Virus record (IMG/VR): IMGVR_UViG_3300044691_000355 | Location: 1 to 64,000 of that record | Origin: a virus | Reading direction: 5' to 3' (one strand) | DNA length: 64,000 nt | In this document: positions 6,480 to 52,735 of the stretch, in pieces | Layout of the letters: the number at the start of each line of letters is the position of its first letter | How positions within the stretch are numbered: position 1 is the stretch's first letter | Position numbers and translations under genes: made by a program | Notes under the pieces: generated by a model | Database searches by the model: none | Told to the model about the DNA's origin: nothing | What the model saw: only the letters and a program-made list of their open reading frames with translations

Positions 6480-7028
6480 TCCTTAGTGCTCCTTGTTGTC
6501 TATACCGCATCCGAATTGCGCGCGTTTCCCTTGAATCCACCGATATGCACAGTTATTCAAGTCCACCACGCTGTACTTTGTCAAGCAAACCTCACCAATT
6601 TAGTGCGCCAATATCATGGTCAAAACATTAGGTCAAATTAAATGTACACGCGTTTTTTAGGGTTTTGCCTGACAGTTTCAAGCTATACATACTCCAACAA
6701 CATCATTACCAGATTTTTTTATTATCGTCGAGATAAATAAACGGAAGTCAAGCATAATGTACCTGGAATCAGGTAATAAATCGGCCTCCACAGATGCCAC
6801 AGGACGGGCTTTCAGCCCATTGCGATAGGAATGCCAAGGGTACACCTTACGCGTACCAGGGACGGCCTACGCCCCTCCTATGCGCTTTCCAAAATACTTT
6901 TAGACGCGCGGCAAATTTCAATGAAAAATAAACATGAAATATGTCACATACCCTCTATACGCCTAACTTGGAGTACGCTAAACTTGCACCTCGGAAAGTT
7001 TGAACGGCTCACCAAGAGGGTTAACACA
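6480..7028. promoter_or_regulatory. AT-rich divergent control region
   Basis: Markedly lower GC; operons diverge on both sides; contains TTGACA (minus strand, 6579-6584) and the first AATACTTTTAG motif. Confidence 0.7.
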
Positions 7029-8096
7029 ATGTCAGACAATATCGATATGAGTAACGGTCAAGCCAACGTCGCGGCAGTCGGCGGCGCTGGCAGTATGTGG
7101 CATAAGAAAGGGAATGAAATCCTAGCCACGGACACAATGTCAGATGTCGCGCGCAAGGCAGGCATGGCGCACATCGTCACTTCCTCCCCAGTCACCTACA
7201 CGGACGGCGCTGGCATCGTTCGCGAGATGCCCAATACTCGCGTGAACTTTCGCGCAGATACGGGCGCAGCCCTGGGCATACGCTCGGATGACTACAAAAT
7301 CCTTCAGCCTGCCCAAGTCCTCGAATTTTTGTGGGACTGGTCGAAAAAGAATAATTGCCCTGTCCACACGGCGGGCAGCCTCGCAGGCGGAAAACGCGTT
7401 TGGGCCATGTGCAAGCTCTCGAAGGAGTTCGGGTTCATGCTGCCAGGCAAGGACAAAATCGACTCCTACCTGCGGTTCATGACGGGCTTTGACGGTAAGA
7501 CGGGCACTTCGGCGGTAGGCACCTCCACGCGCCAAGTGTGCGAGAACACTGAGAACCTGATCAATCGCACGGATGGCAAAAATTCCTACAACGTCTCGCA
7601 CATGGCGCAATTCGATCCAGTGGCGCTACAGCAAGCGCTTGGCATGATGGGGGAGTCCCATCGCATCACCTCGCAATTCTGGAATGAGCTGTGCAAGCGC
7701 AAGGTAAACGACGCGGAGCGCGATAAATTCTTCTGCGATCTGTTCGAGATCGATGTAGCGCAACGCGACGCGGTAGACAGCGCGGGCAAAACCATCGTCA
7801 AGACTCGCACGCGCAACATGCTGAGCCAATTGACGGCGGCCTTTAACAACGCCCCTGGGCAGAATCTGAAGTCTGCCAAGGGCACGGCCTACGGCCTTTT
7901 GCAGGCGGTCACGTACTGGACGGATCACGAGTCGCGCTCGAATGACATCCACAAGGATGGCGCTGACGCGGCGCGTTTCAACTCGGCGCAATTCGGCCTC
8001 GGTGCTCGCACGAAAGCGGACGCGCAATACCTTGCGGCAGAGTTGGCGGGTTGCCTGGAACTGGTAGTGCCTGCCTCGCAGCTAGTCGCGGCCTGA
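7029..8096 (+). CDS. DUF932 (TIGR03299 phage/plasmid-like) protein
   Basis: WHKKG, YKILQP, TAGSL.GGKRVW, RQVCENT, GTAYGLLQAVTYWTDH motifs. Confidence 0.85.
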   Translation: MSDNIDMSNGQANVAAVGGAGSMWHKKGNEILATDTMSDVARKAGMAHIVTSSPVTYTDGAGIVREMPNTRVNFRADTGAALGIRSDDYKILQPAQVLEFLWDWSKKNNCPVHTAGSLAGGKRVWAMCKLSKEFGFMLPGKDKIDSYLRFMTGFDGKTGTSAVGTSTRQVCENTENLINRTDGKNSYNVSHMAQFDPVALQQALGMMGESHRITSQFWNELCKRKVNDAERDKFFCDLFEIDVAQRDAVDSAGKTIVKTRTRNMLSQLTAAFNNAPGQNLKSAKGTAYGLLQAVTYWTDHESRSNDIHKDGADAARFNSAQFGLGARTKADAQYLAAELAGCLELVVPASQLVAA

Positions 8097-36565: not shown

Positions 36566-37660
36566 TTACAGGTTGGAGCGACGAGCGCACACCTCGGGGT
36601 ACACCATCTCGACGCCGCCGATGCGACCGAAGTAGGTCGTGATCTGGCGGATGTCGCGGTACTCAATCGGTGTGCGCTGGAGCGGCACCAACGGCAGACG
36701 CACGCGCGTCGGGTCCTTGATGTAGGCGAACATCGAATTGGTCGCGATGCCGAGCGGGTTGGTCGGCTGCGTCGCGGTGCCCAGGAGCCACTTGCACGGC
36801 AGAATCTGGAACGGCGTTGTGGTCTGACCGACGGCAACGTTATTTTCCAGCAAGTACGTCAGGATCGACTGGCTGCCCGCTGTTGAAATCAGCGTCGAGC
36901 GCAAAATCGAATAGGACACCGGATCAATCAGCAGCCGGTCTGGCATCGCTGCGTAACCGCTCGCGGCCCATGCGCTGTTCAAGATCGCATTGACATCGGC
37001 GAGAATCAGCGCGGCGGTCGCGGACGCCCAGCCGCCCGTCACGGCATTGCCCGTGTTGGTCAAAGCGGCGTGATTCAGAAGACCGTTCATCCTCATGATC
37101 ACATCGCCCGTGTAGGCCTCTTCGTCCAAGTCCATGTTGTACTTGAGCATCATGGCGTCGAACTTCTGCTGATCGATGGGGCGGCCCAACTGCTGCGCGG
37201 AAATCAGTTCCGGCAACGTCCAGGTCAACTGCACCATCCACAGCGGCAACGCAGAAATCTGCTTACCGATGTCCAGCGACACGCCGACAATCGCATTCGC
37301 CTCCTTGCTCGCCCAGGCCTTATTCGAGCCCGCGATTCCCTGCCCGGACGCGAATGAGCTGTTCGTAAAGCTCGATTCCTCATCCCCCATCGTCACGTCT
37401 TCGCGAAGATCGATATCGCGCGCCCACGTGTAGGCGACCAGCGGCATGTGCAGCCGGGGGTCCAAGCGCTCCAGCTCGCTGAGCAAAAACACGCCCGCTG
37501 AATCAATGGTGTTGCGGTCGTAGGTTTGGAATGCATCGCGCGTGCGCGCATGCACACGATGGGTCAGCCGCGTATCAACGCCATGAACGACGTTTAATCC
37601 GTGGCCGTTCGCGCGGGCATTCGCCAGCGCCGTTTTTACGGACTGATTGAGACTTAGCAT
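36566..37660 (-). CDS. Major capsid protein (DUF2184)
   Basis: FL.SELERLD, TW.RDI.LREDV, GRPID.QK, Y.GD, GGVE.VYP. Confidence 0.92.
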   Translation of the reverse strand: MLSLNQSVKTALANARANGHGLNVVHGVDTRLTHRVHARTRDAFQTYDRNTIDSAGVFLLSELERLDPRLHMPLVAYTWARDIDLREDVTMGDEESSFTNSSFASGQGIAGSNKAWASKEANAIVGVSLDIGKQISALPLWMVQLTWTLPELISAQQLGRPIDQQKFDAMMLKYNMDLDEEAYTGDVIMRMNGLLNHAALTNTGNAVTGGWASATAALILADVNAILNSAWAASGYAAMPDRLLIDPVSYSILRSTLISTAGSQSILTYLLENNVAVGQTTTPFQILPCKWLLGTATQPTNPLGIATNSMFAYIKDPTRVRLPLVPLQRTPIEYRDIRQITTYFGRIGGVEMVYPEVCARRSNL

Positions 37661-37727: not shown

Positions 37728-38225
37728 TTAGATGTTGAAGCGAATTTCCGCGTTGCCGCTCGGGTCGGAGGGCGTCATGAAGAACGCGTTGATGCCGATG
37801 TTGGTGCCCGAGATGAAAGCCGCCTCGATGCCGCCCAAGACCGCTGCGCCCGCCGCATTCGCGTAGCGCATGAACGCTTGACCGCCCTGCGCTGCGACGC
37901 CCGCCTGGCAGAACACATTCATGTAGCCGCGTACCATCACGTCGGCTTGTCGGCCCGCCGTGCACTTCGGCACCCCTGTGCCCAAAGGATCGGAGGCATT
38001 CAGGCCGGTGGTCGGATAGGGGCGCGCCAGGAAGCCATAGGCTGCGACATCGCCAACGACGGTCAGGGGAACGAACAGGCCGCCGACCATCTTGCCGGGA
38101 AAGCCAAAGGCGGAGAACGGCGTTGCTGGATTGAAGGCTTGCGGTTCCACCGTCGCGCCAGCCGCGTTGCGCGAGATGTCTCCAGGCACGCCGAAGTTCA
38201 TACGATACAAAATTGCGTTAGACAT
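37728..38225 (-). CDS. Capsid decoration/cement protein
   Basis: YRM..G.PGDISR, G.L.RPYP, RGYM.V; between protease and capsid. Confidence 0.8.
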   Translation of the reverse strand: MSNAILYRMNFGVPGDISRNAAGATVEPQAFNPATPFSAFGFPGKMVGGLFVPLTVVGDVAAYGFLARPYPTTGLNASDPLGTGVPKCTAGRQADVMVRGYMNVFCQAGVAAQGGQAFMRYANAAGAAVLGGIEAAFISGTNIGINAFFMTPSDPSGNAEIRFNI

Positions 38226-38304: not shown

Positions 38305-39018
38305 TTAAACGCCGCCGCTGCGCGAGGCCCAGAATTTGCGATTGGTTTCATTCAAGGATGCGGTGGTGACCGCCTTGCCGAAATCCTTGACGGTGAGCTT
38401 GACGTTTGCGCCCGCCTTGTTATTGCGCTCGCGCATCAGCTCGGCGGCTCCAGTGAAGACGCCTGCAACGTTGTCGAGCGTCACTGCATCGATCTTCTCG
38501 CCAAGCAAGAAGGGCTCGATCACCGCTTTGCCGTCGTCGGTCGCATAGGCTGTCTGCACGGCTTTGAGCATCAGGGCTGGCAGCGCATCCTTGGCCTGCG
38601 CACTGTCGCCCGTCGGCACCGCGATACCGGGGCTCAAGATTTCCGCACGCGCGAAAATGTGCTTGGACACTTGCGCCGCATCGGAGGTGCCGAGCACGCC
38701 GACATTGCGGGTACGCGCGGCTTCAAGCGCGGCTGCGGAATCGGTGGCGGCCTTCGCGGCAACGGCGTCCTCGGCTGCCTTTTTCTTCATCGCACAGTCG
38801 GCCGCTTCCTGTTCTTCCTCGGCATCCTTCACCGCCTGGCGCTGCTCATCGACCCACGCGAGCGCGTCCTGGATGCGCTTATCCATGGCTGAGTCTGTCG
38901 TCCCGCCATCGTTGCCGCCCGTGTCATCATCGGCGAGTTCTTTATCGAGTGTTTCCGCGTCGCGCGCATTGAACGCCTGCATGACACGGATGAATTTATC
39001 GGCAAATTTCGATTTCAT
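38305..39018 (-). CDS. Possible nested scaffold protein from an internal start
   Basis: AGGAGA RBS about 10 nt before the in-frame ATG of MKSKFADKF. Confidence 0.5.
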   Translation of the reverse strand: MKSKFADKFIRVMQAFNARDAETLDKELADDDTGGNDGGTTDSAMDKRIQDALAWVDEQRQAVKDAEEEQEAADCAMKKKAAEDAVAAKAATDSAAALEAARTRNVGVLGTSDAAQVSKHIFARAEILSPGIAVPTGDSAQAKDALPALMLKAVQTAYATDDGKAVIEPFLLGEKIDAVTLDNVAGVFTGAAELMRERNNKAGANVKLTVKDFGKAVTTASLNETNRKFWASRSGGV

Positions 39019-39942
39019 GATTGAACGGTCTCCTAACGGTTTATAAATGCGCGATTTCGCCGCGCTGCTGGGTCTGCTCGGTTTCGACTTGCGTTGCAGC
39101 GCTCGATAGGCCGCCATGTGCTCTTTGCTCTTCGCCGTGTGTACGGCGAAGGACTTCTGATTGCCTGCCGCATGCGCGGCGGTTGCGGCTTCGAGGTGCA
39201 GGCCAAGGGCATGCCAATGGGCTTCCTCATCGCCACTCGTTTGCGCCGCTGCACTCGCCGCATGCGCGGCGGCTGAGCGCAGGCTGGTGCCACCGCCGCC
39301 ACCACTCCAGCGCCCGGTCGCATCGCGCTTCTCGGTGGGGTTGAACTGATCCCACACGGAATCCTTGATGGCGCAGCGCGAGCCTGCGCGCCCGCGCCCG
39401 TCGAGTAGCGCCACGTGATTGCCGATGATGTTGTACTGCGTCGCGCGCCCCACGTCGGTCTGCTCATATTCCGCGTCATAGCCGCAGGAAAGTTCCGGGT
39501 GCTTGCGATTCACGAAGGCAATCGCCTCACCGTCGGTGATGATCAGATCGCCCACGAGCGTGTCATCTTCGATGCCGCTGCCACGGCGCACGTTGTGCAC
39601 GGTGCCCACGGAATGTTTCTTCCAACTGCCGGGGGTCACGAATTCGTTCGGATGCTCCAAGGTGACCGGCTTGCCCTCGAAGCTCGACATCGTCTTGTCG
39701 CTGAAAACCTCATCCGCGAGGCGCGTGACGATGATCTCGCCCGCGCCATTGGCATCCAAGGGCAGCTCGGATTTGTGGTAGCGCTGCTCGCCCGTGCGCG
39801 CAATCGCCACCCCCTCGCACACCATGTACCCTTCAGGCGTAAGCCTGCGGCTCTTGCCCACCGCGCCTGGCGCATAGAAAGCGGTTTTGTCGATGACCCC
39901 GACACGGTCGAACACATTGAAGCGCTCGCGCACTTTCTTCAT
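38305..39942 (-). CDS. Head maturation protease/scaffold (DUF2213) with a tagged insertion
   Basis: TPEGY, IARTG, EVF...SFEGKPVT.EHP, ELSCGY, GNHVAL..GRAG.RC.I.D. Confidence 0.9.
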   Translation of the reverse strand: MKKVRERFNVFDRVGVIDKTAFYAPGAVGKSRRLTPEGYMVCEGVAIARTGEQRYHKSELPLDANGAGEIIVTRLADEVFSDKTMSSFEGKPVTLEHPNEFVTPGSWKKHSVGTVHNVRRGSGIEDDTLVGDLIITDGEAIAFVNRKHPELSCGYDAEYEQTDVGRATQYNIIGNHVALLDGRGRAGSRCAIKDSVWDQFNPTEKRDATGRWSGGGGGTSLRSAAAHAASAAAQTSGDEEAHWHALGLHLEAATAAHAAGNQKSFAVHTAKSKEHMAAYRALQRKSKPSRPSSAAKSRIYKPLGDRSIMKSKFADKFIRVMQAFNARDAETLDKELADDDTGGNDGGTTDSAMDKRIQDALAWVDEQRQAVKDAEEEQEAADCAMKKKAAEDAVAAKAATDSAAALEAARTRNVGVLGTSDAAQVSKHIFARAEILSPGIAVPTGDSAQAKDALPALMLKAVQTAYATDDGKAVIEPFLLGEKIDAVTLDNVAGVFTGAAELMRERNNKAGANVKLTVKDFGKAVTTASLNETNRKFWASRSGGV

Positions 39943-40268
39943 GTGTTCGCAATCGAGGGATAGGTGCGCACTGGCAGGATGCCCGACCAGTCCAAGATTT
40001 TTTCTGGGTTGCTCGTGGCGCACGACACGCCGATGGCGTAGTCGTTGTAATCCACGCCAGCCGATACCGGCAGCAGCACTTGTGTGCTGGTGGAGCCGAG
40101 CACGGCGGTGCCCAAGATCAAGCCAGCCCCGTTGGTGTCGGTGCCCCAGATATGATTGAGAACGACCGTCGGCGCGCCGGTCAGGGTTTCCCCAACCAGC
40201 AGCCCCAATGCAAAGTTGAACACCAGTTCAACCGCTTCCAGGGGTGCTTTTTCACTGAATCGCTGCAT
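39939..40268 (-). CDS. Fibre adaptor protein
   Basis: K.P.E...L.FNF...L..GETL pattern; follows the repeat fibre gene. Confidence 0.65.
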   Translation of the reverse strand: MQRFSEKAPLEAVELVFNFALGLLVGETLTGAPTVVLNHIWGTDTNGAGLILGTAVLGSTSTQVLLPVSAGVDYNDYAIGVSCATSNPEKILDWSGILPVRTYPSIANT

Positions 40269-44245: not shown

Positions 44246-45079
44246 TTAAACGATGATTTCTGCCCAGCAGCGGCATTCCCAAATGCACCCAGGATGAAAG
44301 CGCATCAGTCGGCCGCTCTCTTCGATCTCGGGCGGGTTGGCCCACTCGCATACGCGGCCGTCCATCGCGCGATGATTCGGGCGAGTCACATGATCTTTGG
44401 TCGCGCGCCAGCGGTAGGTCGGAAGCCCGGCGATGCTCGCGCGTGCTTGGGTCAAATTCGATGCGGTGCGCGACACCTCGGTGCGTGCGATCAGCCGCGC
44501 GTGCGCTGCGCTCACCTCGCCTGAGCGCTCGATCTCGCGCACGATCCTTCCTAATCGCTCGCCCTCGATCAGGCCGGTCAAGGTGAGGCGTTGCACACGC
44601 TGCGCAGCTTCGATGGGCAAGGAGGCAATCAATTCGGTTTGCTCGGCCATGAGTTTGGCCATCACTGCGCCGACTTGCGTGTCACGGATTTCTTGCGCGA
44701 CGCCAGCGGACATGCTCTTGGCCAGCGCGCGCCAGGTTTCGATATCGCGCGCGTTGACTTCCTCGATCATCCTGGCCGATGCTTTTTTGGCCCATGGCCG
44801 AAGCACCTGGCTGTAGGCGTGCAGCACCGAGACCAGCTCTTCGTTACCCGCCCTTTGGGCGGCGGGGAACGCATTGATCAGATGCCCGATGTGTTCACCC
44901 ACCTTGCCGAGCGAACGCTCGAATTCTTCCGTCGCGCGGCCGATCCGTGGCTTGCCTCGCGCTCGCTTCGCGCGCGCATCCATGGCGCGGTGACGCTGCG
45001 CCCGCGAGCCAAGGGAGTACGTTAGGTGGCCGCACGTGAGCAGCGGCACGAATTTCGGTTTCGGTTTCGCCGCGATCAC
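44246..45079 (-). CDS. MuF/SPP1 gp7 minor head protein
   Basis: ARLIARTE, Y.WR..D..TR..H..MDG, HPG.IW.CRC; GTG at 45079 with GTGA overlap. Confidence 0.9.
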   Translation of the reverse strand: MIAAKPKPKFVPLLTCGHLTYSLGSRAQRHRAMDARAKRARGKPRIGRATEEFERSLGKVGEHIGHLINAFPAAQRAGNEELVSVLHAYSQVLRPWAKKASARMIEEVNARDIETWRALAKSMSAGVAQEIRDTQVGAVMAKLMAEQTELIASLPIEAAQRVQRLTLTGLIEGERLGRIVREIERSGEVSAAHARLIARTEVSRTASNLTQARASIAGLPTYRWRATKDHVTRPNHRAMDGRVCEWANPPEIEESGRLMRFHPGCIWECRCWAEIIV

Positions 45080-45258
45080 GGCGTTGTCGGCGGCGTCACC
45101 ACGGCATTGATCAGTGCATCGGCGTACCCGACGCACACTCGCGCAAGGTCTGCGGGATCATTGCGTGCGCCGCGCACGATGGCAGCGGTCAGGAAGACCC
45201 CCGCGAGCGCGAGGCGCAAGACTTGATCGCGATCTTCAAAATCGATGGGCTCACTCAT
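45076..45258 (-). CDS. Small hypothetical protein
   Basis: ATGA/GTGA overlaps on both sides. Confidence 0.6.
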   Translation of the reverse strand: MSEPIDFEDRDQVLRLALAGVFLTAAIVRGARNDPADLARVCVGYADALINAVVTPPTTP

Positions 45259-45389
45259 TCCGTCTCATCCTCGTCTTCGTCGATGGGCTCATCATCAAAC
45301 GGATACTCCATGCCCTCGGGCAGATGCGCTTCGACCGGCTGATAGTCGTTCAAGCGCTTGATGAAATCCTCGGAGACTTTCTCGGTCAT
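45255..45389 (-). CDS. 44-aa highly acidic protein (candidate inhibitor of the upstream ADP-ribosyltransferase)
   Basis: MTEKVSEDFIKRLNDYQPVEAHLPEGMEYPFDDEPIDEDEDETE; ATGA overlaps at both ends. Confidence 0.65.
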   Translation of the reverse strand: MTEKVSEDFIKRLNDYQPVEAHLPEGMEYPFDDEPIDEDEDETE

Positions 45390-47764
45390 AACAGCGCTCC
45401 TTGAGCGGGGGCCTTCACGCGCGGCTTGCGTAGCTTCGGCGGTTGCACCGATGAACTGACCGCCGTGGCATGCACCACGATTCGCGCGAGTTCGCCCTCG
45501 CCTTTCGTGACCTTGGTGATTTTGAAGACCGTGCCCCGTGGCAGCAGCGCTTCGGCCTCGCCGTCGGCGAATGGCACGTCAGTGCCGTTATGCTGATTGG
45601 CCAATTTGCCGAAGGTGGGGATGGATAGGAACTTGAATCCCTTCGGGATGGTGATATGCATCAGCCCGTCTTTACTGAACACGTGCGCCACGCTCTTGGC
45701 GAACGAGGTGGAGCAATACGCGTGATCCATCATCGTGTCACCGACGCCGATGGATTCAACAAGGATGCGGGGAAGGCCGCGCGCGACCAGCAGCTTGCGC
45801 GGCGAGCCCTTCACGGCCTGCATGGCTGTATCGATGCCACGGATGTACGTCTGCATGTAGCTCGACACTGCGTCGAGATTGCCTTGGCTACGACGCAAAT
45901 CATCGTTGATCGAAGAACCTCCGGTGTACTTGACGACCCCGTCGATGATCTCGGGCGTAGGATCTGGCGGCGGCATCTTGAATGCGCGCTCGGCGAGGCG
46001 TGAGGCCTCTGTGCCGCTGCTGCCGCGCATTTTTATCAACATTTCAGGCAACGTCTTCGGATCAACGGGCTCAGGCGGCGCGTTGTTCGCTGCGGATGAC
46101 GCCGCGTAAGCCTGCGCTTCGGCCGTCGAGGCCTTCGTGTATTCCGCTTGCCACGTCGCTTTCTCAGCCCCAGTCATGCTGGTGGAGGCGTACACGGTCG
46201 ATGCCATGTTGGTGAAGGCATCGAGCTTTTCGACGGCGGCGAAGTGTGCGGCCTTGAGTTTGTCCAGCTCCGTTTGCGGCTTCGCCGACATCTTTTGCGC
46301 GAGCTTCTGCTTCTCCAGCGCCGCATTCAGCGCAGCCTCTGCTGCGTTTTCGTTGAACTGCGCTTCACTCACCAGCGCTTTCAGATGCGCGAGCTGCTCG
46401 GGGATGGCAGTCCCTGACGTGAACGCTTGAACGAGCCGCATGACAGCCGCTTCGTTCTCGGCGCGCGCCTCCAGATGCGCCGCCTGCAACTCCTGCAACG
46501 GCGTGAGAGGCGCGGGCGCATTCATCTGATTGACGTAGGTTTGCATCACTGAGCCGAAATGCGCGAGCGTCGCGGGCCCATCGGCCTGCGCGGCGTTCAT
46601 GATCTGAAGGAATTTCTTCGGTGAAGATTTGCCGTACAGGTACAGCTCGTGCACGCCGTATTGCAGATTGCCGACCCACAGCTTGGTCGCCTCGGTCACC
46701 TCGAAATTTTCCTGCACGTGCTTGAGCGAGCCCGCTTCGGCGGAATACGTGAAATCGAGTTTCTGCGCCGCCTGGGTGTCGAGTTGCTCCAACTCCAACA
46801 CCTTATCGGTCTCGGCATCTGCCTTGTACGCGGCTTGAAGCGCCTCTTGAATACGCTTCTTCTCCAGCACCGCTGCCTGATGCAGCGCCGCTTTCTCTTT
46901 CGCATACGCCATCGCGGTGCCTGTCACCGTCGGCGGGAAGAGCTGATTGAAACTGCCTTTGGTCCACTTGCCGGTCGCGTCGCGCTTCTGATCGGGGTCG
47001 AAATGATTCTTCTCATCATCGCGAGTCACACCGATCAATGCGGCGCGGCGCGCAAAGAACGTGCGCGCCAGCGTCGCGGAATTCTTCAAGCCGGAGGCGA
47101 CGAATGCGCCCTCAATGGCATTGCTATCAAGGCCGCGCACGCGCTCAAGCGCCGTATCAAAGGCCTTCGGGTCCAAGCGGCGCAACTGATTGAACACGGC
47201 ACCGGAGGGTAAATGCTCGCGCATCAGGCTCGACTTCTCGCTCACATCGGCGTCGTAGTCCTTATGCTGCCCCTGCGCGCGAAATTCAAACGCGCCGCCC
47301 AGATCGAGCTGCACCAAGTGACCTTGCGCGTCTTGCGCGATGTTCGAGTAATCAATTCCCAGCACGTCCCAGTTTTTGGTGAGCACGGCCGCGTAATACA
47401 TGGTCGCCAAGTCCACGCGCCGCTCAGCGTCGAGGAGCTGCACCGCGCCGGGCCACTTCACGGGCTTCGCCTCAATCCACGGGGAGACCAAGGCCTCCTT
47501 GCCGTGCACGGATTCGACATGCGGCATCGTGGTGCGCACACCCAACTGTCCGACCAGCGCGCTGGCGAGCGCCTCGCTGCGGCCCTGATCGGGGTTTGCG
47601 TAGAATTTGATGTAGTGCTTCTGACCCGCACTCGTGAACACGCCGCCGGGGTTTGAACCTAACTGCGCGCCGCTCTTCGTCCAGCGGCCTTGCGTGTCGC
47701 GCTTCTCAGCAGGATCAAAGCCGTCGTATGCCCTCGCGACGCGCGCATCCCACTGAGCGCTCAC
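45386..47764 (-). CDS. Head-module polyprotein: tag, HipA/PI3K-like kinase, tag, helical region, ADP-ribosyltransferase (VIP2/Alt-like)
   Basis: GSNPGG..YIK..E..NWD....N...LD.GG kinase motifs; Y.G.SSINDDLR, RG, STS, ExE-ALLPRG ART motifs. Confidence 0.85.
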   Translation of the reverse strand: MSAQWDARVARAYDGFDPAEKRDTQGRWTKSGAQLGSNPGGVFTSAGQKHYIKFYANPDQGRSEALASALVGQLGVRTTMPHVESVHGKEALVSPWIEAKPVKWPGAVQLLDAERRVDLATMYYAAVLTKNWDVLGIDYSNIAQDAQGHLVQLDLGGAFEFRAQGQHKDYDADVSEKSSLMREHLPSGAVFNQLRRLDPKAFDTALERVRGLDSNAIEGAFVASGLKNSATLARTFFARRAALIGVTRDDEKNHFDPDQKRDATGKWTKGSFNQLFPPTVTGTAMAYAKEKAALHQAAVLEKKRIQEALQAAYKADAETDKVLELEQLDTQAAQKLDFTYSAEAGSLKHVQENFEVTEATKLWVGNLQYGVHELYLYGKSSPKKFLQIMNAAQADGPATLAHFGSVMQTYVNQMNAPAPLTPLQELQAAHLEARAENEAAVMRLVQAFTSGTAIPEQLAHLKALVSEAQFNENAAEAALNAALEKQKLAQKMSAKPQTELDKLKAAHFAAVEKLDAFTNMASTVYASTSMTGAEKATWQAEYTKASTAEAQAYAASSAANNAPPEPVDPKTLPEMLIKMRGSSGTEASRLAERAFKMPPPDPTPEIIDGVVKYTGGSSINDDLRRSQGNLDAVSSYMQTYIRGIDTAMQAVKGSPRKLLVARGLPRILVESIGVGDTMMDHAYCSTSFAKSVAHVFSKDGLMHITIPKGFKFLSIPTFGKLANQHNGTDVPFADGEAEALLPRGTVFKITKVTKGEGELARIVVHATAVSSSVQPPKLRKPRVKAPAQGALL

Positions 47765-50628
47765 GGCCCAAACATTTCCGCATACACGGAATCGAAATCC
47801 TCATCGCCGTCATCATCGTCATCGCCGGGGTCAACGCTTTGCCAATCTGGCGTCTCGCCCACATAGCCATGCGTCTCTAAGAAATCGGTCATCGCTTGCT
47901 CACTCGTCACGGCTGCATCGGCGGCAAACAGGCGGCCGATCCAGTCCTTGACCTTGGATTTTTTCACTGGGGCTGTTGCACTCCAGGCTTTCCACACCAT
48001 CGGATCGATGTAGGACTTCAAGGCCTGCGCGGGCTTGTTGCCGAGCTTATCGCTGACCTTTTCAGCGATGGCGGCCACAGAGGCCTTGTGCTCTTTCGCA
48101 TCCATCGGCACCGGCATTTTCTTGACCTGCGCGCGCGCCATGTCGGTGGCGACCCATGTGCGCATGTCCTTCAAATCGAATTCTGAAGCCCCAATGCCGT
48201 GGAAGTAATCGCGCACGTGGGTTTCGCTCACCTGGAAAATCTGCTTATTCTCGCCCGTCGCACGCTGGCGTAGGAAGGTCGCGACCTTCGCATCCTTGAC
48301 GATGTGATGCTGCGTAACGCCGCTCTTGCCGGGGAAATCGAACGTGGTCGAATCGCCTGAGACCTTGACGTGCTGGCCTTCCAACTGCGTCGCCCCATGG
48401 GCTTTGACATCCGCGCCCGTGTCCTTTTCGGAGCCGGGACGAAAGCCAGTCTGCGAGACCAAGTACACGACTGCGGCGGCATCCTGTACCGCGCGCGGCA
48501 GCTTCGGATCGTTCATGTCGGCGGCGGCCTTGGCAACCACGCGATCCCGTACCTTATTGAAGGCGACGAGGCGCGAGAATTTCTCCACGTCCTGCTCGCC
48601 GCGATGGCCCGGCAGCTCGCGTGACTGTGAGCGGCCCTTGACATCGCGCCCCGTCACTTGCTTGCCTTCGGTCGGATCGGGATTCAAGCGAATGTCGGTC
48701 CACGCGGGCGGTATTTTCAGCGCCTTCAATCGCGCGTGCTCTTCGGGCGTGCCGCCATGCCACTTCTCATTTGCGCCGTACACGGTGTGCGCTGGCACCA
48801 TCTCGCCCTTGACGAGCTGCGCGGGGATGAGCGTGCCGCCGGAGCGCGTGAACACCTTGCTCGATGTGCTCCAGCGATTCGCAATTGGATTCTTGGACAC
48901 GTAGGACTTTTCAGGCACCGCTGCCTTGCCCTGATTGCCTATCGTCCATTTGCCTTCGGGGTCGCGCTTCTCCTGCGGATTGAACCCGTGGTGCGGCTGA
49001 CCGCCTGACGTGACGTGCTTCAACTTATCGAAGTTCGGGATATTCTCGAAGCGGTCAAAGAAATCCGCGTCGCGGCCTTTCTTGGTCTTCGGCGGCGGCT
49101 TCTTCGCGACCTTGGAGGCCTTGCTCTTCGCGCCCGGCGCTTTGGCAGCGCCTGACTCTGAGCCACGGCCGGGACGCGCGGGCGTCTTGCCCTTTGCGCC
49201 GGGTTTCGCAGCGCCCGGCGGTGCACCGGGGGCGGGCTTCGGCAGCACCAGGCCCAGCGCTTCGGGCGTGGGATCGGGCAGCGACTCGGCGTTTTTGATG
49301 TCCTCATCCGCGATATTCGAGAACGCGCCGGTAATGAGCGACATCGCCTTGAGTTCCTTCAGGCCCGTCGCTTTGTTGATGAGCTGCGCGGAGAAGGCCT
49401 CGGTAACGGCCGCCACCGTGGTGTTGGTGACCTGGGATTTCTCCGTGTCGGACAACTGCCACAGGGATTTGAACTCTAAGGTGAATTCTTTCGGCGGCTC
49501 GGTGCCGAATTTGCTGATGTACGCCAGGCGATACACCGTCTCGATGCCATCACCCAGCCACGTGACTTGCTGCTGCTTCACTGAATCGTGATAGCCGCGA
49601 ATGTCGGCATCCCCGGTCGAGAACCCGGCAGGCGATTGACCGAAGAGGCGCACCAGCGGTATTTCAACGGCCCCCGCCAACTGCTCGCCGAACTGCGACA
49701 GGATCACATCGAGACCGGCAAATGCGTACTGGTGCGTCTCAAAAGTGTCGCGCGTATCCAAGAGGGTGAGGCCCTCATTGGTTTGCATCGCGCGAATCAT
49801 GTTGATGTTGGCGAGCAAGCCTTTCATCGCGGCCGATGTGCCGCCGATGATTTCGCGCAGGCCCTCCACCGACAGCGTGCGCAAATGCGCCTTGTAGACC
49901 ATCTGCGAGATGCCAGCGGTGGCCGAGTCATACGCGATCAGCCGATCCCACATCCGCTCGATCACTGACTGGCCCCACAGGTTCTCACCGATGCGCTGCC
50001 AGTACGGCAGCTCCACGCCCTCGATGCGGATCACGCGCGAGTAGTGGATTTTCATGCGCGGCATGCCGCCCGTGTCGGTGATCGTGTCGTAGAAGCGCGG
50101 TTTGCCGAAGTACGGCCCCATGTCATCGACCAAGTCGGTCAAGGAGGGCTGCAACACCCACCGATCCAGCGGCATCAAACCTTTGAATTGCCCCTGGCGA
50201 ATGCGATCCAATTTCAATGGCGTCGCGGGGTTTTGCCCATCGATCATCATGAAGGCGACAGCGCCGCCATAGAGGCGCGCCCACTTAATCGTGTCGCGCA
50301 GTTGCTTCCACAATTGCAGGCGCGCGATTTCCTTATTGAAGTCCGCGATCTTTGACGGCTTATCGCTCGTGGTGATTTCCATGCCCTCGCGGGTCATGTC
50401 CTGCGCGTAGACATCGACCACGCGACCGGCGATCCAAGAGCCCCGGTACACCATCTCCATCTGCATGCGGTTGCGCGAGATGGGATTAAACCCATACGCG
50501 CCGCCATCGCCCTGATTGCCCGTGCCGCGCCCCACGTGCGCAAGAAAATTCTGAAAAGTATCGTGAGTTTGGGCGGCCTCCGCGTCTGCGAACTTCTTGA
50601 CCAGTCGCGGACTGCGCCGATTGCTCAT
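47761..50628 (-). CDS. Portal protein (DUF1073-type) fused to DNA topoisomerase IB and an acidic tail
   Basis: YRGSWIA..VVD..A.DMTR, W.RLYGG, IHYSR, IP..RLFGQSPAG (portal); IPPAW, GRD.KGR.Q, GFRPG, F.GKSG, KD.RT..A, LGN....KSYIDP (TopIB). Confidence 0.9.
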   Translation of the reverse strand: MSNRRSPRLVKKFADAEAAQTHDTFQNFLAHVGRGTGNQGDGGAYGFNPISRNRMQMEMVYRGSWIAGRVVDVYAQDMTREGMEITTSDKPSKIADFNKEIARLQLWKQLRDTIKWARLYGGAVAFMMIDGQNPATPLKLDRIRQGQFKGLMPLDRWVLQPSLTDLVDDMGPYFGKPRFYDTITDTGGMPRMKIHYSRVIRIEGVELPYWQRIGENLWGQSVIERMWDRLIAYDSATAGISQMVYKAHLRTLSVEGLREIIGGTSAAMKGLLANINMIRAMQTNEGLTLLDTRDTFETHQYAFAGLDVILSQFGEQLAGAVEIPLVRLFGQSPAGFSTGDADIRGYHDSVKQQQVTWLGDGIETVYRLAYISKFGTEPPKEFTLEFKSLWQLSDTEKSQVTNTTVAAVTEAFSAQLINKATGLKELKAMSLITGAFSNIADEDIKNAESLPDPTPEALGLVLPKPAPGAPPGAAKPGAKGKTPARPGRGSESGAAKAPGAKSKASKVAKKPPPKTKKGRDADFFDRFENIPNFDKLKHVTSGGQPHHGFNPQEKRDPEGKWTIGNQGKAAVPEKSYVSKNPIANRWSTSSKVFTRSGGTLIPAQLVKGEMVPAHTVYGANEKWHGGTPEEHARLKALKIPPAWTDIRLNPDPTEGKQVTGRDVKGRSQSRELPGHRGEQDVEKFSRLVAFNKVRDRVVAKAAADMNDPKLPRAVQDAAAVVYLVSQTGFRPGSEKDTGADVKAHGATQLEGQHVKVSGDSTTFDFPGKSGVTQHHIVKDAKVATFLRQRATGENKQIFQVSETHVRDYFHGIGASEFDLKDMRTWVATDMARAQVKKMPVPMDAKEHKASVAAIAEKVSDKLGNKPAQALKSYIDPMVWKAWSATAPVKKSKVKDWIGRLFAADAAVTSEQAMTDFLETHGYVGETPDWQSVDPGDDDDDGDEDFDSVYAEMFGP

Positions 50629-50639
50629 TCAGGATTCCT

Positions 50640-50900
50640 TTTCGGGGTTAATATCCACGTCGGTGCCACGGGACATTCCCGTTATAAACGCCCCTCGGAC
50701 ACAGTTCCGTTGTGCGCCGATGATTCAACATCGCGCGAGGGGCGGGCCAGAAAAAAGGGCCGGTGCTTTGATCGGGCGTCCTTCCCACACGCCCTAAGCG
50801 TGACGGCGCACCAATCCGTGTTTCTCGCTGGTAGTCCCCCGCGCAAAAATTTGTGCTGGGCATTTTTGGCCGGTGCCCCAACCTCACCGATCTCTTTCGA
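50640..50900 (-). ncRNA. Candidate structured RNA upstream of the portal gene
   Basis: Several nested inverted repeats, including a GAAA-capped hairpin, in a long intergenic gap. Confidence 0.4.
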
Positions 50901-50908
50901 GAGCCGGT

Positions 50909-51004
50909 CTACTTGATGATGTCGCCAGCCAGGCGCTTGCAGCGCATACAGATCGCTTTCAAGGGGCTGCGCTTATGGCCGAAGAAAAAGCAAAGAATGT
51001 TCAT
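50909..51004 (-). CDS. 31-aa Cys/His peptide (DUF1660-like)
   Basis: LCFFFGHK...CMRC; ATGA overlap with terL. Confidence 0.55.
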   Translation of the reverse strand: MNILCFFFGHKRSPLKAICMRCKRLAGDIIK

Positions 51005-52347
51005 TCGCCCAACTTCTCCCACTGCGCACCGACGCCGCGCCTTTGGATGTAGCCATCGAGCCCGTAGCGAACCGCGTCCCATCCATGGTTGTGTGCATCG
51101 ACGATGATGGGCAACACATCGCCCGTGATCCGGTCCACCTTGTAAGCGTACAGACGCGCCTCTTCCTGCATGTGCTTGCAGCGCTCGTGAATATGGATGC
51201 GGACGAAGCCTTTTAAATGCGCAACGCCGTCCTCTAACGACCCCGGCCATTTATCGGCGGCCGAAATGTTGAAGGACTTGCGCGCCATGTAGGAAATCGT
51301 CTCAGGGCGCGCGCAGTCGGCCCTGATCGGCCAGGCCCTTGAGCCGGGCACGGAGTCAAACAATTGCGGGGTCTCATCGATCTCCACGCGGTAGCCGAAG
51401 GCCTCGTGACTGATCCACAACTCCTGACTGTGATCAGGATTCTCAGTGACCCAGAAACGAATGAGCGCGGTAGGATCATTTGCAAAACCCCAGTCTGCGC
51501 CGTAAAAAATGCGGGTGTCTTCATGGGGATTGCCAAAGGATTCTACGAGGACCCGACGGCGGAACACCGCCGCATTGGAATTCTTTTGAAGCTTGCCTTC
51601 CCAGACGTGATCGTAATCGGCCTGTAACTGGGAGCGCTCATCATCATCGGTAGCCTCGGCGATGCGCCGCCAGTCATTCTCGCGCTCGGCCTTCAGCTCA
51701 TCGGGGAACCATGGATTGTCGTTCCAGTTCACCTCGACGCTGCGCATGTCCGGGCGCGTCGCGAGCACGAAGCGCTCGTACGTCGGGTCCGTCTCATCGC
51801 GCGGGTTGAACACCACCCAGATTTCGGATGAGCCCAACTTGGTGCGAATGGTGGGAATCAAATATTTCCAGGACGCATCGGAGACGCGCTCCGCTTCCTC
51901 GACCAGGCAGATATCAATCGCTTCGAGCGACTTGATCTTGAGCGGGTCCGTCTTGATCCCCGCGAAAATAAACTCGGTGCCGTTGACCCCAAAGATGGCC
52001 TGCGCCTGAATCTCGTAGAAGCGCGTGAGGCCCATCTGTTCGATGCGATCCGTGATCAGTTTGTAGATCGAATCGCGAATCGAGGTCTGGTACTCGCGCG
52101 CGCAGAGGATGCGCAGCCGGTGCTGCGTGCCCAACACGGCGCATAGGCCTGCAAAGCTCCAGCTCTTCCCCGATCCGCGCCCCCCGTAGGCCACCTTGTA
52201 GCGGCTCGGAATAAACACGGGCATGCCGCCGGGGCCCGGCCTGAAAAAGAGGTCCCGCAGTTTTGGCGGGAGAAAATCGTTAGTGGGTGAGTTGCGGCTC
52301 GGGGTCCTCATCCGTTGCTTCGGGTTTCTCAGCGGCTCCGGGTTCAT
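51001..52347 (-). CDS. terL: Terminase large subunit (PBSX-type); start uncertain
   Basis: GGRGSGKS Walker A, LVEEAE Walker B, FNP, GADWGFANDP, NH..DAVRY. Confidence 0.95.
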   Translation of the reverse strand: MNPEPLRNPKQRMRTPSRNSPTNDFLPPKLRDLFFRPGPGGMPVFIPSRYKVAYGGRGSGKSWSFAGLCAVLGTQHRLRILCAREYQTSIRDSIYKLITDRIEQMGLTRFYEIQAQAIFGVNGTEFIFAGIKTDPLKIKSLEAIDICLVEEAERVSDASWKYLIPTIRTKLGSSEIWVVFNPRDETDPTYERFVLATRPDMRSVEVNWNDNPWFPDELKAERENDWRRIAEATDDDERSQLQADYDHVWEGKLQKNSNAAVFRRRVLVESFGNPHEDTRIFYGADWGFANDPTALIRFWVTENPDHSQELWISHEAFGYRVEIDETPQLFDSVPGSRAWPIRADCARPETISYMARKSFNISAADKWPGSLEDGVAHLKGFVRIHIHERCKHMQEEARLYAYKVDRITGDVLPIIVDAHNHGWDAVRYGLDGYIQRRGVGAQWEKLGE

Positions 52348-52735
52348 AGATCAATGCCTTTTTCGGAAGGCCTGGACCGCCATCGGCGAAGGAGATACCA
52401 AGCTTCGGGTGATCGACCGGCCTGCCCTGCGCATCGAGCAATTGGTTTTGCACCACGTTGACCTCGCGCCAACCGGCTTGGGATTTCATCCAGAAAATCG
52501 CAGCGCCCAGGTTCATATCCACGGTGGCCATAGTGAAGAGCGTCTTGGCCACGGTCGCATTGCCGCGCGCCTTGCCCTGGTCTAATTCCAATTTGTAATA
52601 CTTGAGCAGCGTCGGGGTCGAGATGTTCATCAGCAGCGCGATGTCGTGATGAGGGGTGCCGACCGTGGCATACGCGCGCGCTTCGAGTGAATCCTTCTCC
52701 GTCTTGATGTGCTTCTTACCCCGCGTGCCCGCCAT
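52280..52735 (-). CDS. terS: Terminase small subunit
   Basis: IA..I...TL.KYY..EL..G...A.IFW.K..AGW.E; directly upstream of terL. Confidence 0.8.
   Translation of the reverse strand: MAGTRGKKHIKTEKDSLEARAYATVGTPHHDIALLMNISTPTLLKYYKLELDQGKARGNATVAKTLFTMATVDMNLGAAIFWMKSQAGWREVNVVQNQLLDAQGRPVDHPKLGISFADGGPGLPKKALIYEPGAAEKPEATDEDPEPQLTH

Follow-up and report, generated by a model that had tools for sequence, protein, structure and literature searches.

Among phage-type polyvalent proteins, PBECR, 2H and InPase domains have been found fused to portal proteins (Iyer, Burroughs, Anand, de Souza and Aravind 2017, PMC5512222, in its passages on this class), and temperate phages encode MuF polymorphic toxins with immunity genes downstream (Jamet et al. 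2017, PMC5576092, in the parts describing these toxins). The topoisomerase of vaccinia virus is a late protein that is packaged in the virion with the genome (passages on this enzyme in PMC11980589 and PMC6336343), and the section of a review that covers topoisomerases of jumbo phages describes free, phage-specific type I enzymes of the tyrosine-recombinase superfamily and no virion fusions (PMC7824862). Here, we analyzed a 64,000-nucleotide (nt) stretch of DNA from an uncultured soil phage, hereafter the window, which forms the first 64 kb of IMG/VR virus record IMGVR_UViG_3300044691_000355 (132,772 bases). It encodes a protein of 955 amino acids (aa), P0001, in which a phage portal is joined within one reading frame to a type IB topoisomerase (TopIB) and an acidic C-terminal module, and we propose that the topoisomerase may be an enzyme cargo of the phage head.

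P0001 is encoded on the minus strand. The initial annotation had described a single unbroken 955-aa open reading frame (ORF) at positions 47761-50628, in which a portal, a Lys/Pro/Ala linker, a tag and a TopIB domain follow one another, and both statements held: the 955 codons are open under translation table 11 as one ORF, and Pfam, matches to solved structures and residue composition agree on the order of the parts. The N-terminus, MSNRR, is common to the four closest relatives in an alignment of P0001 with P0003-P0006. For the portal half, Pfam PF06381 matched aa 56-409 above its curated cut-off (E-value (E) 3.2e-103), the portal family phrog_146 covered aa 15-494, and TIGR01555, the sole NCBIfam match on P0001, scored 245.5 bits against a cut-off of 196.25. 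Among solved structures, the portal of Pam3 (8hds) matched aa 55-456 by sequence (E 1.6e-35), and the portals of E217 and Pa193 (8fvh, 9b41) also matched this half, with E 1.9e-11 and 5.9e-14, respectively. Behind the portal, the low-complexity linker (aa 461-546) has a net charge of +13, with 15 K, 13 P, 13 A and 9 G among the 80 residues of aa 461-540, and its per-residue confidence (pLDDT) is <50 wherever it is covered by the AlphaFold2 model described below. Just ahead of the tag, a K-D-x-FF..F island is conserved in the alignment of five close relatives.

The second half of P0001 is confirmed, from its sequence and its modelled fold, as an intact TopIB of the bacterial/poxvirus type. The Pfam TopIB catalytic core (PF01028) spans aa 676-868 with 74.2 bits against a cut-off of 23.7 (E 1.3e-20), the bacterial TopIB N-terminal domain (PF21338) spans aa 628-662 with 33 bits against a cut-off of 27 (E 5e-8), and the solved structure of Deinococcus radiodurans TopIB (PDB 2f4q) is a sequence match to aa 631-880 (E 1.1e-21). 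The complete set of catalytic residues that had been listed from inspection alone was recovered motif by motif: GFRPG at aa 728-732 (R730), GKSG at aa 767-770 (K768), KDMRT at aa 820-824 (K820 and R823), LGN at aa 862-864 (N864) and SYIDP at aa 872-876 (Y873), and the tyrosine codon previously placed at 48010-48012 is exactly that of Y873. R730, K768, R823, N864 and Y873 each align to the matching residue of 2f4q, and these partners are the Deinococcus catalytic residues R137, K174, R239, N280 and Y289; K820 is an extra lysine within KDMRT. In an alignment of 31 portal-TopIB fusions (P0001 and 30 of 54 relatives, the omitted ones being mostly near-identical 974-aa members), there is no variation at R730, K768, R823 and Y873, and conservation is at least 90% at K820 and N864; the Arg, Asn and Tyr columns are invariant in all 73 of the TopIB relatives, of all architectures, that were scanned for domains. 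Because the catalytic residues are invariant or conserved to this degree, the domain is apparently maintained as an enzyme, and its complete catalytic set makes it look active.

The fold points to the same family. An AlphaFold2 model of aa 541-955, built on the 31-fusion alignment, reached a mean pLDDT of 76.7 and a pTM of 0.71, with beta strands at aa 592-671 (model residues 52-131) modelled at pLDDT 81-91, and pLDDT <50 in the linker and tag region and in the acidic run at aa 919-941. Comparison with Deinococcus TopIB had been proposed as a check of the domain assignment, and it came out in favor of that assignment: in a Foldseek search of this model against the PDB, Deinococcus TopIB (3m4a/2f4q) was the best match at E 5e-15, followed by human Top1 and the variola topoisomerase, with TopIB chains ranging from E 5e-15 to 3e-9. 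An identity as a tyrosine recombinase or telomere resolvase was rejected by the same search, in which the best recombinase, XerH, reached E 5.5e-4 and TelA E 0.23. A DNA-level domain search of the 132,772-base record returned this TopIB as a single occurrence. The poxvirus TopIB site CCCTT was not avoided in the window, where it was counted 110 times versus 89.05 +/- 8.30 in shuffles (a count reached by 2 of 100 shuffles), although the specificity of this enzyme may differ.

We next consider whether the fusion is real or whether, through chimeric assembly, a missed stop or a frameshift, two truly separate portal and TopIB genes only appear joined. A word-indexed search of ~5.8 billion proteins scored 8000 candidates, of which 308 were relatives at E<=0.001, and within the set formed by P0001 and the best 120 of these 308, 55 of 121 proteins contained both portal and TopIB when phmmer was seeded with the two halves. 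P0003-P0006 align end to end with P0001, at 61-70% identity over 97-100% of the query, and other fusion relatives are 35-39% identical over ~91% of it. When one genome per prokaryotic species was scanned, 24 loci with a TopIB relative were obtained, of which three carry portal-TopIB fusions; these lie in metagenome-assembled genomes (MAGs) with labels from three different phyla (Paceibacterota, Gammaproteobacteria and Caldisericales), and the Caldisericales-labelled locus has the same gene order of large terminase (TerL), portal-TopIB, MuF, protease and capsid protein. Read coverage of the junction, a check raised with the original description, was addressed with the independent Logan assembly of the probable source sample, in which a 59,826-nt contig runs continuously across the gene with 0 differences at a depth of 20. 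A second soil study yielded eight short, near-identical pieces corresponding to parts of the portal, to the tag with the TopIB N-terminal region and to the TopIB C-terminal region; none of the eight bridges 49013-49416, the portal-linker junction, and such gaps prove nothing either way. In a search of viral contigs with the single TopIB sequence, 0 of 8 pattern matches were confirmed. In favor of an artefact, the record was assembled from a metagenome and contains two distinct phage head modules, and full-length read-level support comes only from the probable source sample. Against it stand the fusions of the same order in 54 other listed proteins at 35-70% identity and in the three MAG loci, the end-to-end alignment of the closest relatives, and the independent assembler's contig. 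We therefore consider an assembly error or missed stop ruled out for practical purposes by the recurrent fusions and the independent contig, and put its probability at next to nothing; the artefact that the initial annotation had named as what could overturn its reading did not materialize, the fusion being present in dozens of independent sequences. As a side observation, the portal-TopIB fusion of the Paceibacterota MAG (P0039, L003:5634-8846) bears the source name 'anti-CBASS Acb1 family protein', which looks like a carry-over of a name for the DUF1073 portal family rather than a description of P0039.

The position of the TopIB part relative to the capsid can be approached through related portals. 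The gp19 portals of E217 and Pa193 have 765 aa, and according to the portal descriptions in PMC10329688 and PMC11456595 their models end at residue 528, after the C-terminal barrel, with residues 529-765 lacking density. In the structure-sequence alignment, residue 528 of gp19 falls at about aa 470-480 of P0001, that is, at the start of the basic linker. Because the C-terminal crown and barrel of a portal point into the capsid, the TopIB cargo should, by analogy, be located within the head, with as many as 12 copies for a dodecameric ring.

The 71 residues that follow the catalytic domain (aa 885-955, net charge -13) are conserved in P0003-P0006. Their core, aa 904-944 (window 47797-47919), reads DFLETHGY...DWQ...DPGDDDD and is followed by a C-terminal helix. 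In loci L003-L008 and L013, where TopIB ends its ORF, the next ORF is small, acidic and DWR-bearing, with a pattern of a hydrophobic-Gly stretch, DWR, an acidic run and a short hydrophobic helix. In 42 of 204 collected TopIB proteins, TopIB is followed by at least 40 residues; 15 of these 42 satisfy strict criteria (DW[RQK] within 110 residues and, over 90 residues, a net charge no higher than -5), and several more are obvious variants. A profile of 20 post-TopIB segments, picked by eye from the 42 and including none from the window's clade, matched P0001 at aa 904-944 with E 1.1e-5 in a set of 291 sequences and had no other match among the 163 ORFs of the record. With the same profile, 7 of 23 loci (L002, L004-L008 and L013), all of them cargo-type, had the module no more than 450 nt downstream of TopIB, and it was found after none of the 13 cellular-type TopIB loci, that is, free TopIB genes of ~313-409 aa without a tag, some of them in complete bacterial chromosomes; the small ORF of L003 carries the motif by eye and had no match to the profile at E<=1.

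The acidic module was also evaluated in a complex prediction with aa 590-884 and aa 885-955 as two chains, which scored 0.67 versus 0.00 for the best of three controls, a level reached by 51 of 78 solved complexes and by 2 of 108 mismatched pairs. Between runs, at least 78% of contacts agree; the partner pLDDT is at least 50, and the interface involves R730, residues 862-868 (including N864) and 870-873 (including Y873) of the enzyme and residues 915-922 and 938-953 of the tail. The acidic module is thus predicted to lie over the TopIB active site (R730, N864 and Y873). From sequence comparison, we identify it as a conserved post-TopIB module of cargo-type TopIB that comes either fused or as the next small gene, the putative partner being fused in cis in the window's clade. 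Here, the initial interpretation needs to be amended: the portal fused to an intact TopIB stands, supported by domains, fold and recurrence, but the acidic C-terminus, taken there as a plain tail, is instead a conserved module that is a separate small gene elsewhere and is predicted over the catalytic residues.

We then evaluated how widely this arrangement is distributed and on which carriers. When 1.84 billion cluster representatives were scanned by HMMER with aa 600-900, 5171 matched at E<=0.001 and 950 at E<=1e-30, and 111 of the 150 best TopIB-domain relatives are >400 aa, most being multi-domain. Pfam was run on the first 73 of these 150 in rank order: TopIB was present in all 73, together with MuF (10), the PF06381 portal (6), ART-PolyVal (5), GNAT (3), the PF04860 portal (2), InPase (2), and Zeta toxin, NUDIX, Acb1, 2H and an exoenzyme-type ADP-ribosyltransferase (ART) in one each. 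In a FastTree phylogeny of the TopIB domain (215 rows, from 221 domains of at least 200 residues with identical ones entered once), the label 'portal-fused' required at least 13 changes, of which well-supported branches forced 9, and the portal was the most frequent identified carrier (59 of 215 rows). In this tree, the TopIB of the window clusters with those of its four close relatives and of two multi-enzyme proteins that lack the portal, one of these two (P0122) combining GNAT, ART-PolyVal and TopIB. A split form occurs in L004 and L005, where a free TopIB of 336 and 346 aa, respectively, is encoded two genes behind a PF06381 portal and ahead of a NUDIX protein. Conversely, a survey of related portals for other C-terminal cargo, as the initial annotation had suggested, was productive: TopIB-less relatives of this portal carry exoenzyme-type ART, InPase, LPD3, NUDIX, Zeta toxin or PBECR3 in the same place.

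A short tag accompanies these modules. The 13-residue motif F[DN]PxEKRDxxG[KR]W, which in P0001 reads FNPQEKRDPEGKW, has four copies in the 132-kb record, all in this head module: one before TopIB, two in the neighboring protein P0002, one before each half, and one immediately behind the protease domain of the protease/scaffold protein. Most of the 31 aligned fusions have a looser form, F-x-E-x-x-H-P-R...G-x-F, ahead of TopIB; this form also occurs in 55 of the 150 best TopIB relatives, with up to five copies in one 2622-aa protein, and stands near the N-terminus of the free TopIB genes in L004 and L005. The tag is modelled with low confidence by AlphaFold2. These occurrences suggest that, on any of the carriers, the tag stands where a cargo module begins; it could serve for targeting to the capsid, as a protease site, or in both ways. 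Taken together, sequence comparisons indicate that the tag-TopIB-acidic cassette moves between portals, MuF proteins, giant multi-enzyme proteins of 1500-2600 aa and stand-alone tagged genes. The cassette also appears to be common in uncultured phages, because the TopIB domain has 5171 relative clusters and most of its 150 closest relatives are multi-domain. In two of the giant proteins, P0170 (2542 aa) and P0174 (2622 aa), TopIB lies in the C-terminal third (aa 1573-1832 and 2054-2309, respectively), and the 2622-aa protein, with its five tag-like motifs, looks as if many cargo modules had been strung together.

P0001 is the only portal of a head module whose genes all lie on the same strand, in the order small terminase (TerS), TerL, portal-TopIB, P0002, MuF, protease, cement protein and capsid protein (Table 1). 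The GTG start of P0002 overlaps the stop codon of the portal gene, and in the relative P0006 the reading frame continues past the acidic module into another tag and then the ART domain, which in the window belongs to this next gene, so that the ART half of P0002 is there fused behind portal-TopIB-acidic module; P0002 is a second, cargo-like protein.

Table 1. Positions, in window coordinates, of the parts of P0001 and of the genes and tags of its head module.
Feature	Position	Strand	Basis
Portal-TopIB-acidic module protein P0001, whole gene, 955 aa	47761..50628	-	ORF; stop codon 47761-47763
Portal domain, aa 1-460, PF06381/DUF1073/TIGR01555 type	49249..50628	-	Pfam, PHROG, NCBIfam, solved portals
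Lys/Pro/Ala/Gly low-complexity basic linker, aa 461-546	48991..49248	-	Composition, charge +13, alignment of relatives
Tag FNPQEKRDPEGKW, 13 aa, aa 549-561	48946..48984	-	Motif search of record
TopIB N-terminal beta-sheet domain, ~aa 592-670	48619..48855	-	PF21338 and modelled strands
TopIB catalytic domain, aa 676-884, with R730, K768, K820, R823, N864, Y873	47977..48603	-	PF01028, 2f4q, Foldseek
Codon of nucleophile Tyr873, in SYIDP	48010..48012	-	2f4q alignment, motif positions
Acidic post-TopIB module, aa 885-955, charge -13	47764..47976	-	Profile, complex prediction, conservation
Small terminase	52280-52735	-	Pfam/PHROG
Large terminase, upstream of portal gene	51001..52347	-	PF04466, PF17288, PHROG families
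P0002, 792 aa, next gene after portal	45386..47764	-	PF03496 at aa 610-767 (exoenzyme-type ADP-ribosyltransferase); two tags
Tags of P0002	47681-47719 and 46964-47002	-	Motif search
MuF-type minor head protein	44246..45136	-	PF04233, E 5.4e-17; phrog_324
DUF2213 head-maturation protease/scaffold	38305..40023	-	PF09979 at aa 59-222; phrog_530, phrog_12864 'head maturation protease'
Tag of protease/scaffold, right after DUF2213 protease domain	39307-39345	-	Motif search
Cement protein	37728-38225	-	Pfam/PHROG
Major capsid protein, E217/Pam3-like head	36566..37660	-	PF09950

Several further features of the record were observed. Between the terminase and portal genes lies an intergenic stretch of 372 nt (50629-51000) in an otherwise tightly packed operon, and a DUF932 protein (E 7e-37) is encoded on the opposite strand, upstream of the structural region, at window 6831-8096 (+). 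Outside the window, the same record holds a second, unrelated head module (~105385-111604) with TerL, a DUF4055 portal and a MuF protein with an intein-splicing domain, and glycosyl-hydrolase-like proteins at 87-92 kb. Because the record looks like two phages or prophages in one contig, its completeness estimate of 96% should be read with caution. Intein-splicing (Hint) domains were seen in proteins after the portal gene at L004:5798-7552, at L005:5908-7713 and at 105385-107421 of the record; PF04233 matched the Hint protein of the record and neither of those of L004 and L005.

The initial annotation had offered torsion relief, circularisation of the genome and action against the host as candidate functions; what the TopIB might do can be framed by four accounts. 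The one we favor, and whose chances we regard as evenly balanced, is that the cassette is a capsid-internal TopIB cargo that is kept silent and then released with the DNA into the host. In this scenario, incorporation of the portal would build up to twelve TopIB copies into each head, and the acidic module would hold the enzyme off DNA both in the producing cell and in the packed head. TopIB would then be freed by flexibility of the linker or by the DUF2213 head-maturation protease/scaffold, a candidate enzyme for cargo release that is encoded in the same module, and would exit with the genome into the newly infected cell. Once released, it could relax, as a swivel that needs no ATP, the topologically constrained DNA of the entering phage, the host chromosome or both. 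Several considerations weigh against this account. Virion presence, cleavage, activity and ejection are all steps that we infer for the TopIB of P0001. An enzyme tethered to the portal must be cut to leave the head, and the conserved islands K-D-x-FF, before the tag, and F-x-x-D, after TopIB, are candidate cut sites only, while a cis-fused acidic module would itself need to be displaced or cut off for activity. Sequence support for equating the cis tail with the separate small ORFs is modest: the 20 segments of the profile were chosen by eye, an earlier profile of six small ORFs matched P0006 at E 0.002 and P0001 only at E 2.7, and hhalign of five tails versus six small ORFs aligned 10 columns around DWR at 26% probability. 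The two chains of the complex prediction are neighbors in one polypeptide cut at a natural bond, so that some proximity is built in, and the tree was made by FastTree only, with a 'portal' label defined by similarity to the window's portal type. Finally, among cultured or deposited phages, none of the 1504 records matching P0001 covers at least 80% of it, and the TopIB domain was matched by only 6 of 50,697 deposited phage records, weakly, at 25-27% identity; in the one of these six that was examined, TopIB is a free gene outside a structural module. The cultured phage that matched P0001 best was Burkholderia phage Magia, with 54% identity in the portal part.

Alternatively, the enzyme could stay on the portal crown and relieve DNA twist during packaging or ejection without ever entering the host. 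The fusion does place TopIB where all DNA passes, the portal is the commonest identified carrier (59 of 215 tree rows, and 55 of 121 portal relatives), the cleavage site is a candidate only, and the C-terminal extensions of related portals are unresolved in maps rather than demonstrably removed. Yet the same cassette occurs on MuF proteins, on multi-enzyme proteins and as a free tagged protein, so that the portal position is not required; the link to the portal arose or vanished at least 13 times; and a conserved module predicted over the active site fits poorly with an enzyme working inside the head. We consider this resident swivel rather unlikely. Two points make us favor delivery over it: the cassette can do without the portal, and it keeps company with ART, NUDIX, Zeta and Acb1-type domains, which would be sensible only inside a host. 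A delivered TopIB might, however, act as a weapon, toxin-like on host DNA by relaxing it, nicking it or becoming trapped in covalent complexes, shutting down the host or disarming its defence, with the acidic module as an immunity or inhibitor partner. On shared carriers, TopIB takes positions equivalent to those of ART, Zeta-toxin and nuclease-type cargo, it has a dedicated small acidic partner gene immediately downstream, this partner is predicted over the active site, and MuF toxins with downstream immunity genes offer a precedent (PMC5576092, in the parts cited above). All religation residues are nevertheless conserved as in housekeeping TopIB, and nothing marks a poison. We also know of no defence system that TopIB would counter, which tells further against a weapon. 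We hold this account to be unlikely too, a little more so than a resident swivel; it differs from cargo delivery, the reading we favor, only in the target DNA, and the present data cannot separate the two. More speculatively, and in our view improbable, TopIB unplugged at ejection could become covalently attached near the end of the incoming linear genome, shield it from host exonucleases and join the ends into a circle without ATP or host ligase. Such joining would be the strand transfer that poxvirus TopIB performs on linear DNA. In a broader version, the patchy 'poxvirus-like' TopIB of bacteria, and perhaps the virion enzyme of poxviruses, would descend from an ancient, widespread kind of phage capsid cargo.

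In full-text literature searches combining portal, capsid, prophage or phage with topoisomerase IB, no paper on a phage portal or capsid TopIB was found among the texts reached; those listed for capsid and phage that name topoisomerase IB deal with giant viruses or with origin-of-life theory. TopIB is not among the cargo domains named in the main text of PMC5512222 (supplementary files not covered), where 'topoisomerase' occurs only in the title of a reference and 'tyrosine recombinase' does not occur, and a term search of the same text found neither the tag nor the acidic partner module. A term search of PMC5576092 returned 'topoisomerase' 0 times.

At the level of the enzyme, the closest match is Deinococcus radiodurans TopIB (2f4q, 3m4a), which shares with P0001 the PF21338 and PF01028 domains and five catalytic residues and is its best match in both sequence (E 1.1e-21) and fold (E 5e-15). 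Cellular TopIB differs from that of P0001 in being a free protein of ~325-370 aa, only 25-31% identical to it, and in lacking the tag, the carrier and the acidic module (present in 0 of 13 cellular-type loci). At the level of the carrier, gp19 of Pbunavirus (E217 and Pa193; 8fvh, 9b41) resembles P0001 in portal fold and sequence, in the accompanying cement protein and PF09950 capsid module and, as far as the structural descriptions cited above go, in carrying a long C-terminal extension past the barrel, which in gp19 does not show up in maps. However, its extension of 237 residues has no match to the TopIB part, and the alignment stops at chain residue 589 (query aa 537).

In overall design, P0001 is closest to two described classes of fused phage proteins. 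Like the polyvalent proteins of Iyer et al., as characterized in the main text of that survey, it joins a virion carrier to an enzymatic domain in a phage with portal-terminase packaging, and relatives of its portal carry domains named there (InPase, ART-PolyVal and PBECR3); its proposed fate, to be packaged and injected, would by analogy be the same. P0001 also contains at least two unrelated functional domains, one of them the virion carrier, as expected of a polyvalent protein. With the MuF toxins, as Jamet et al. present them in the parts cited, it shares a carrier from the head module and a variable C-terminal enzyme domain, and the small downstream gene that protects against those toxins would have its counterpart in the acidic module. 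The MuF carrier is encoded next to the portal gene, but in P0001 the carrier is the portal itself, MuF being a separate gene in the window, and the putative partner is fused in cis. P0001 has no MuF carrier, yet MuF fusions account for 10 of the 73 scanned TopIB relatives.

The poxvirus topoisomerase (vaccinia H6R; variola, 2h7f) belongs to the same family and has the same fold as the TopIB of P0001. Poxvirus TopIB has His instead of Asn at the fourth catalytic position, and to our knowledge no inhibitor module has been found for it. As portrayed in the passages on vaccinia cited at the outset, the poxvirus enzyme differs from P0001 in belonging to a eukaryotic virus and in being packaged as a free protein with the transcription complex, with no fusion to a capsid vertex. 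By analogy, the poxvirus virion topoisomerase is nonetheless the closest functional counterpart of the cargo proposed here. A few enzymes are known to travel in phage heads, and a topoisomerase would be a new type of cargo. If the proposal is true, the cassette would offer a natural protein inhibitor of TopIB, a scheme of tag, enzyme and plug for loading an enzyme into a capsid via the portal, and a possible reason why bacterial TopIB is patchy in distribution and obscure in role. Overall, the portal-TopIB with its partner module is a new cargo with its own partner within the known theme of effectors fused to portal and MuF proteins, undescribed as far as our searches reach, and would represent a phage parallel to the virion topoisomerase of poxviruses.

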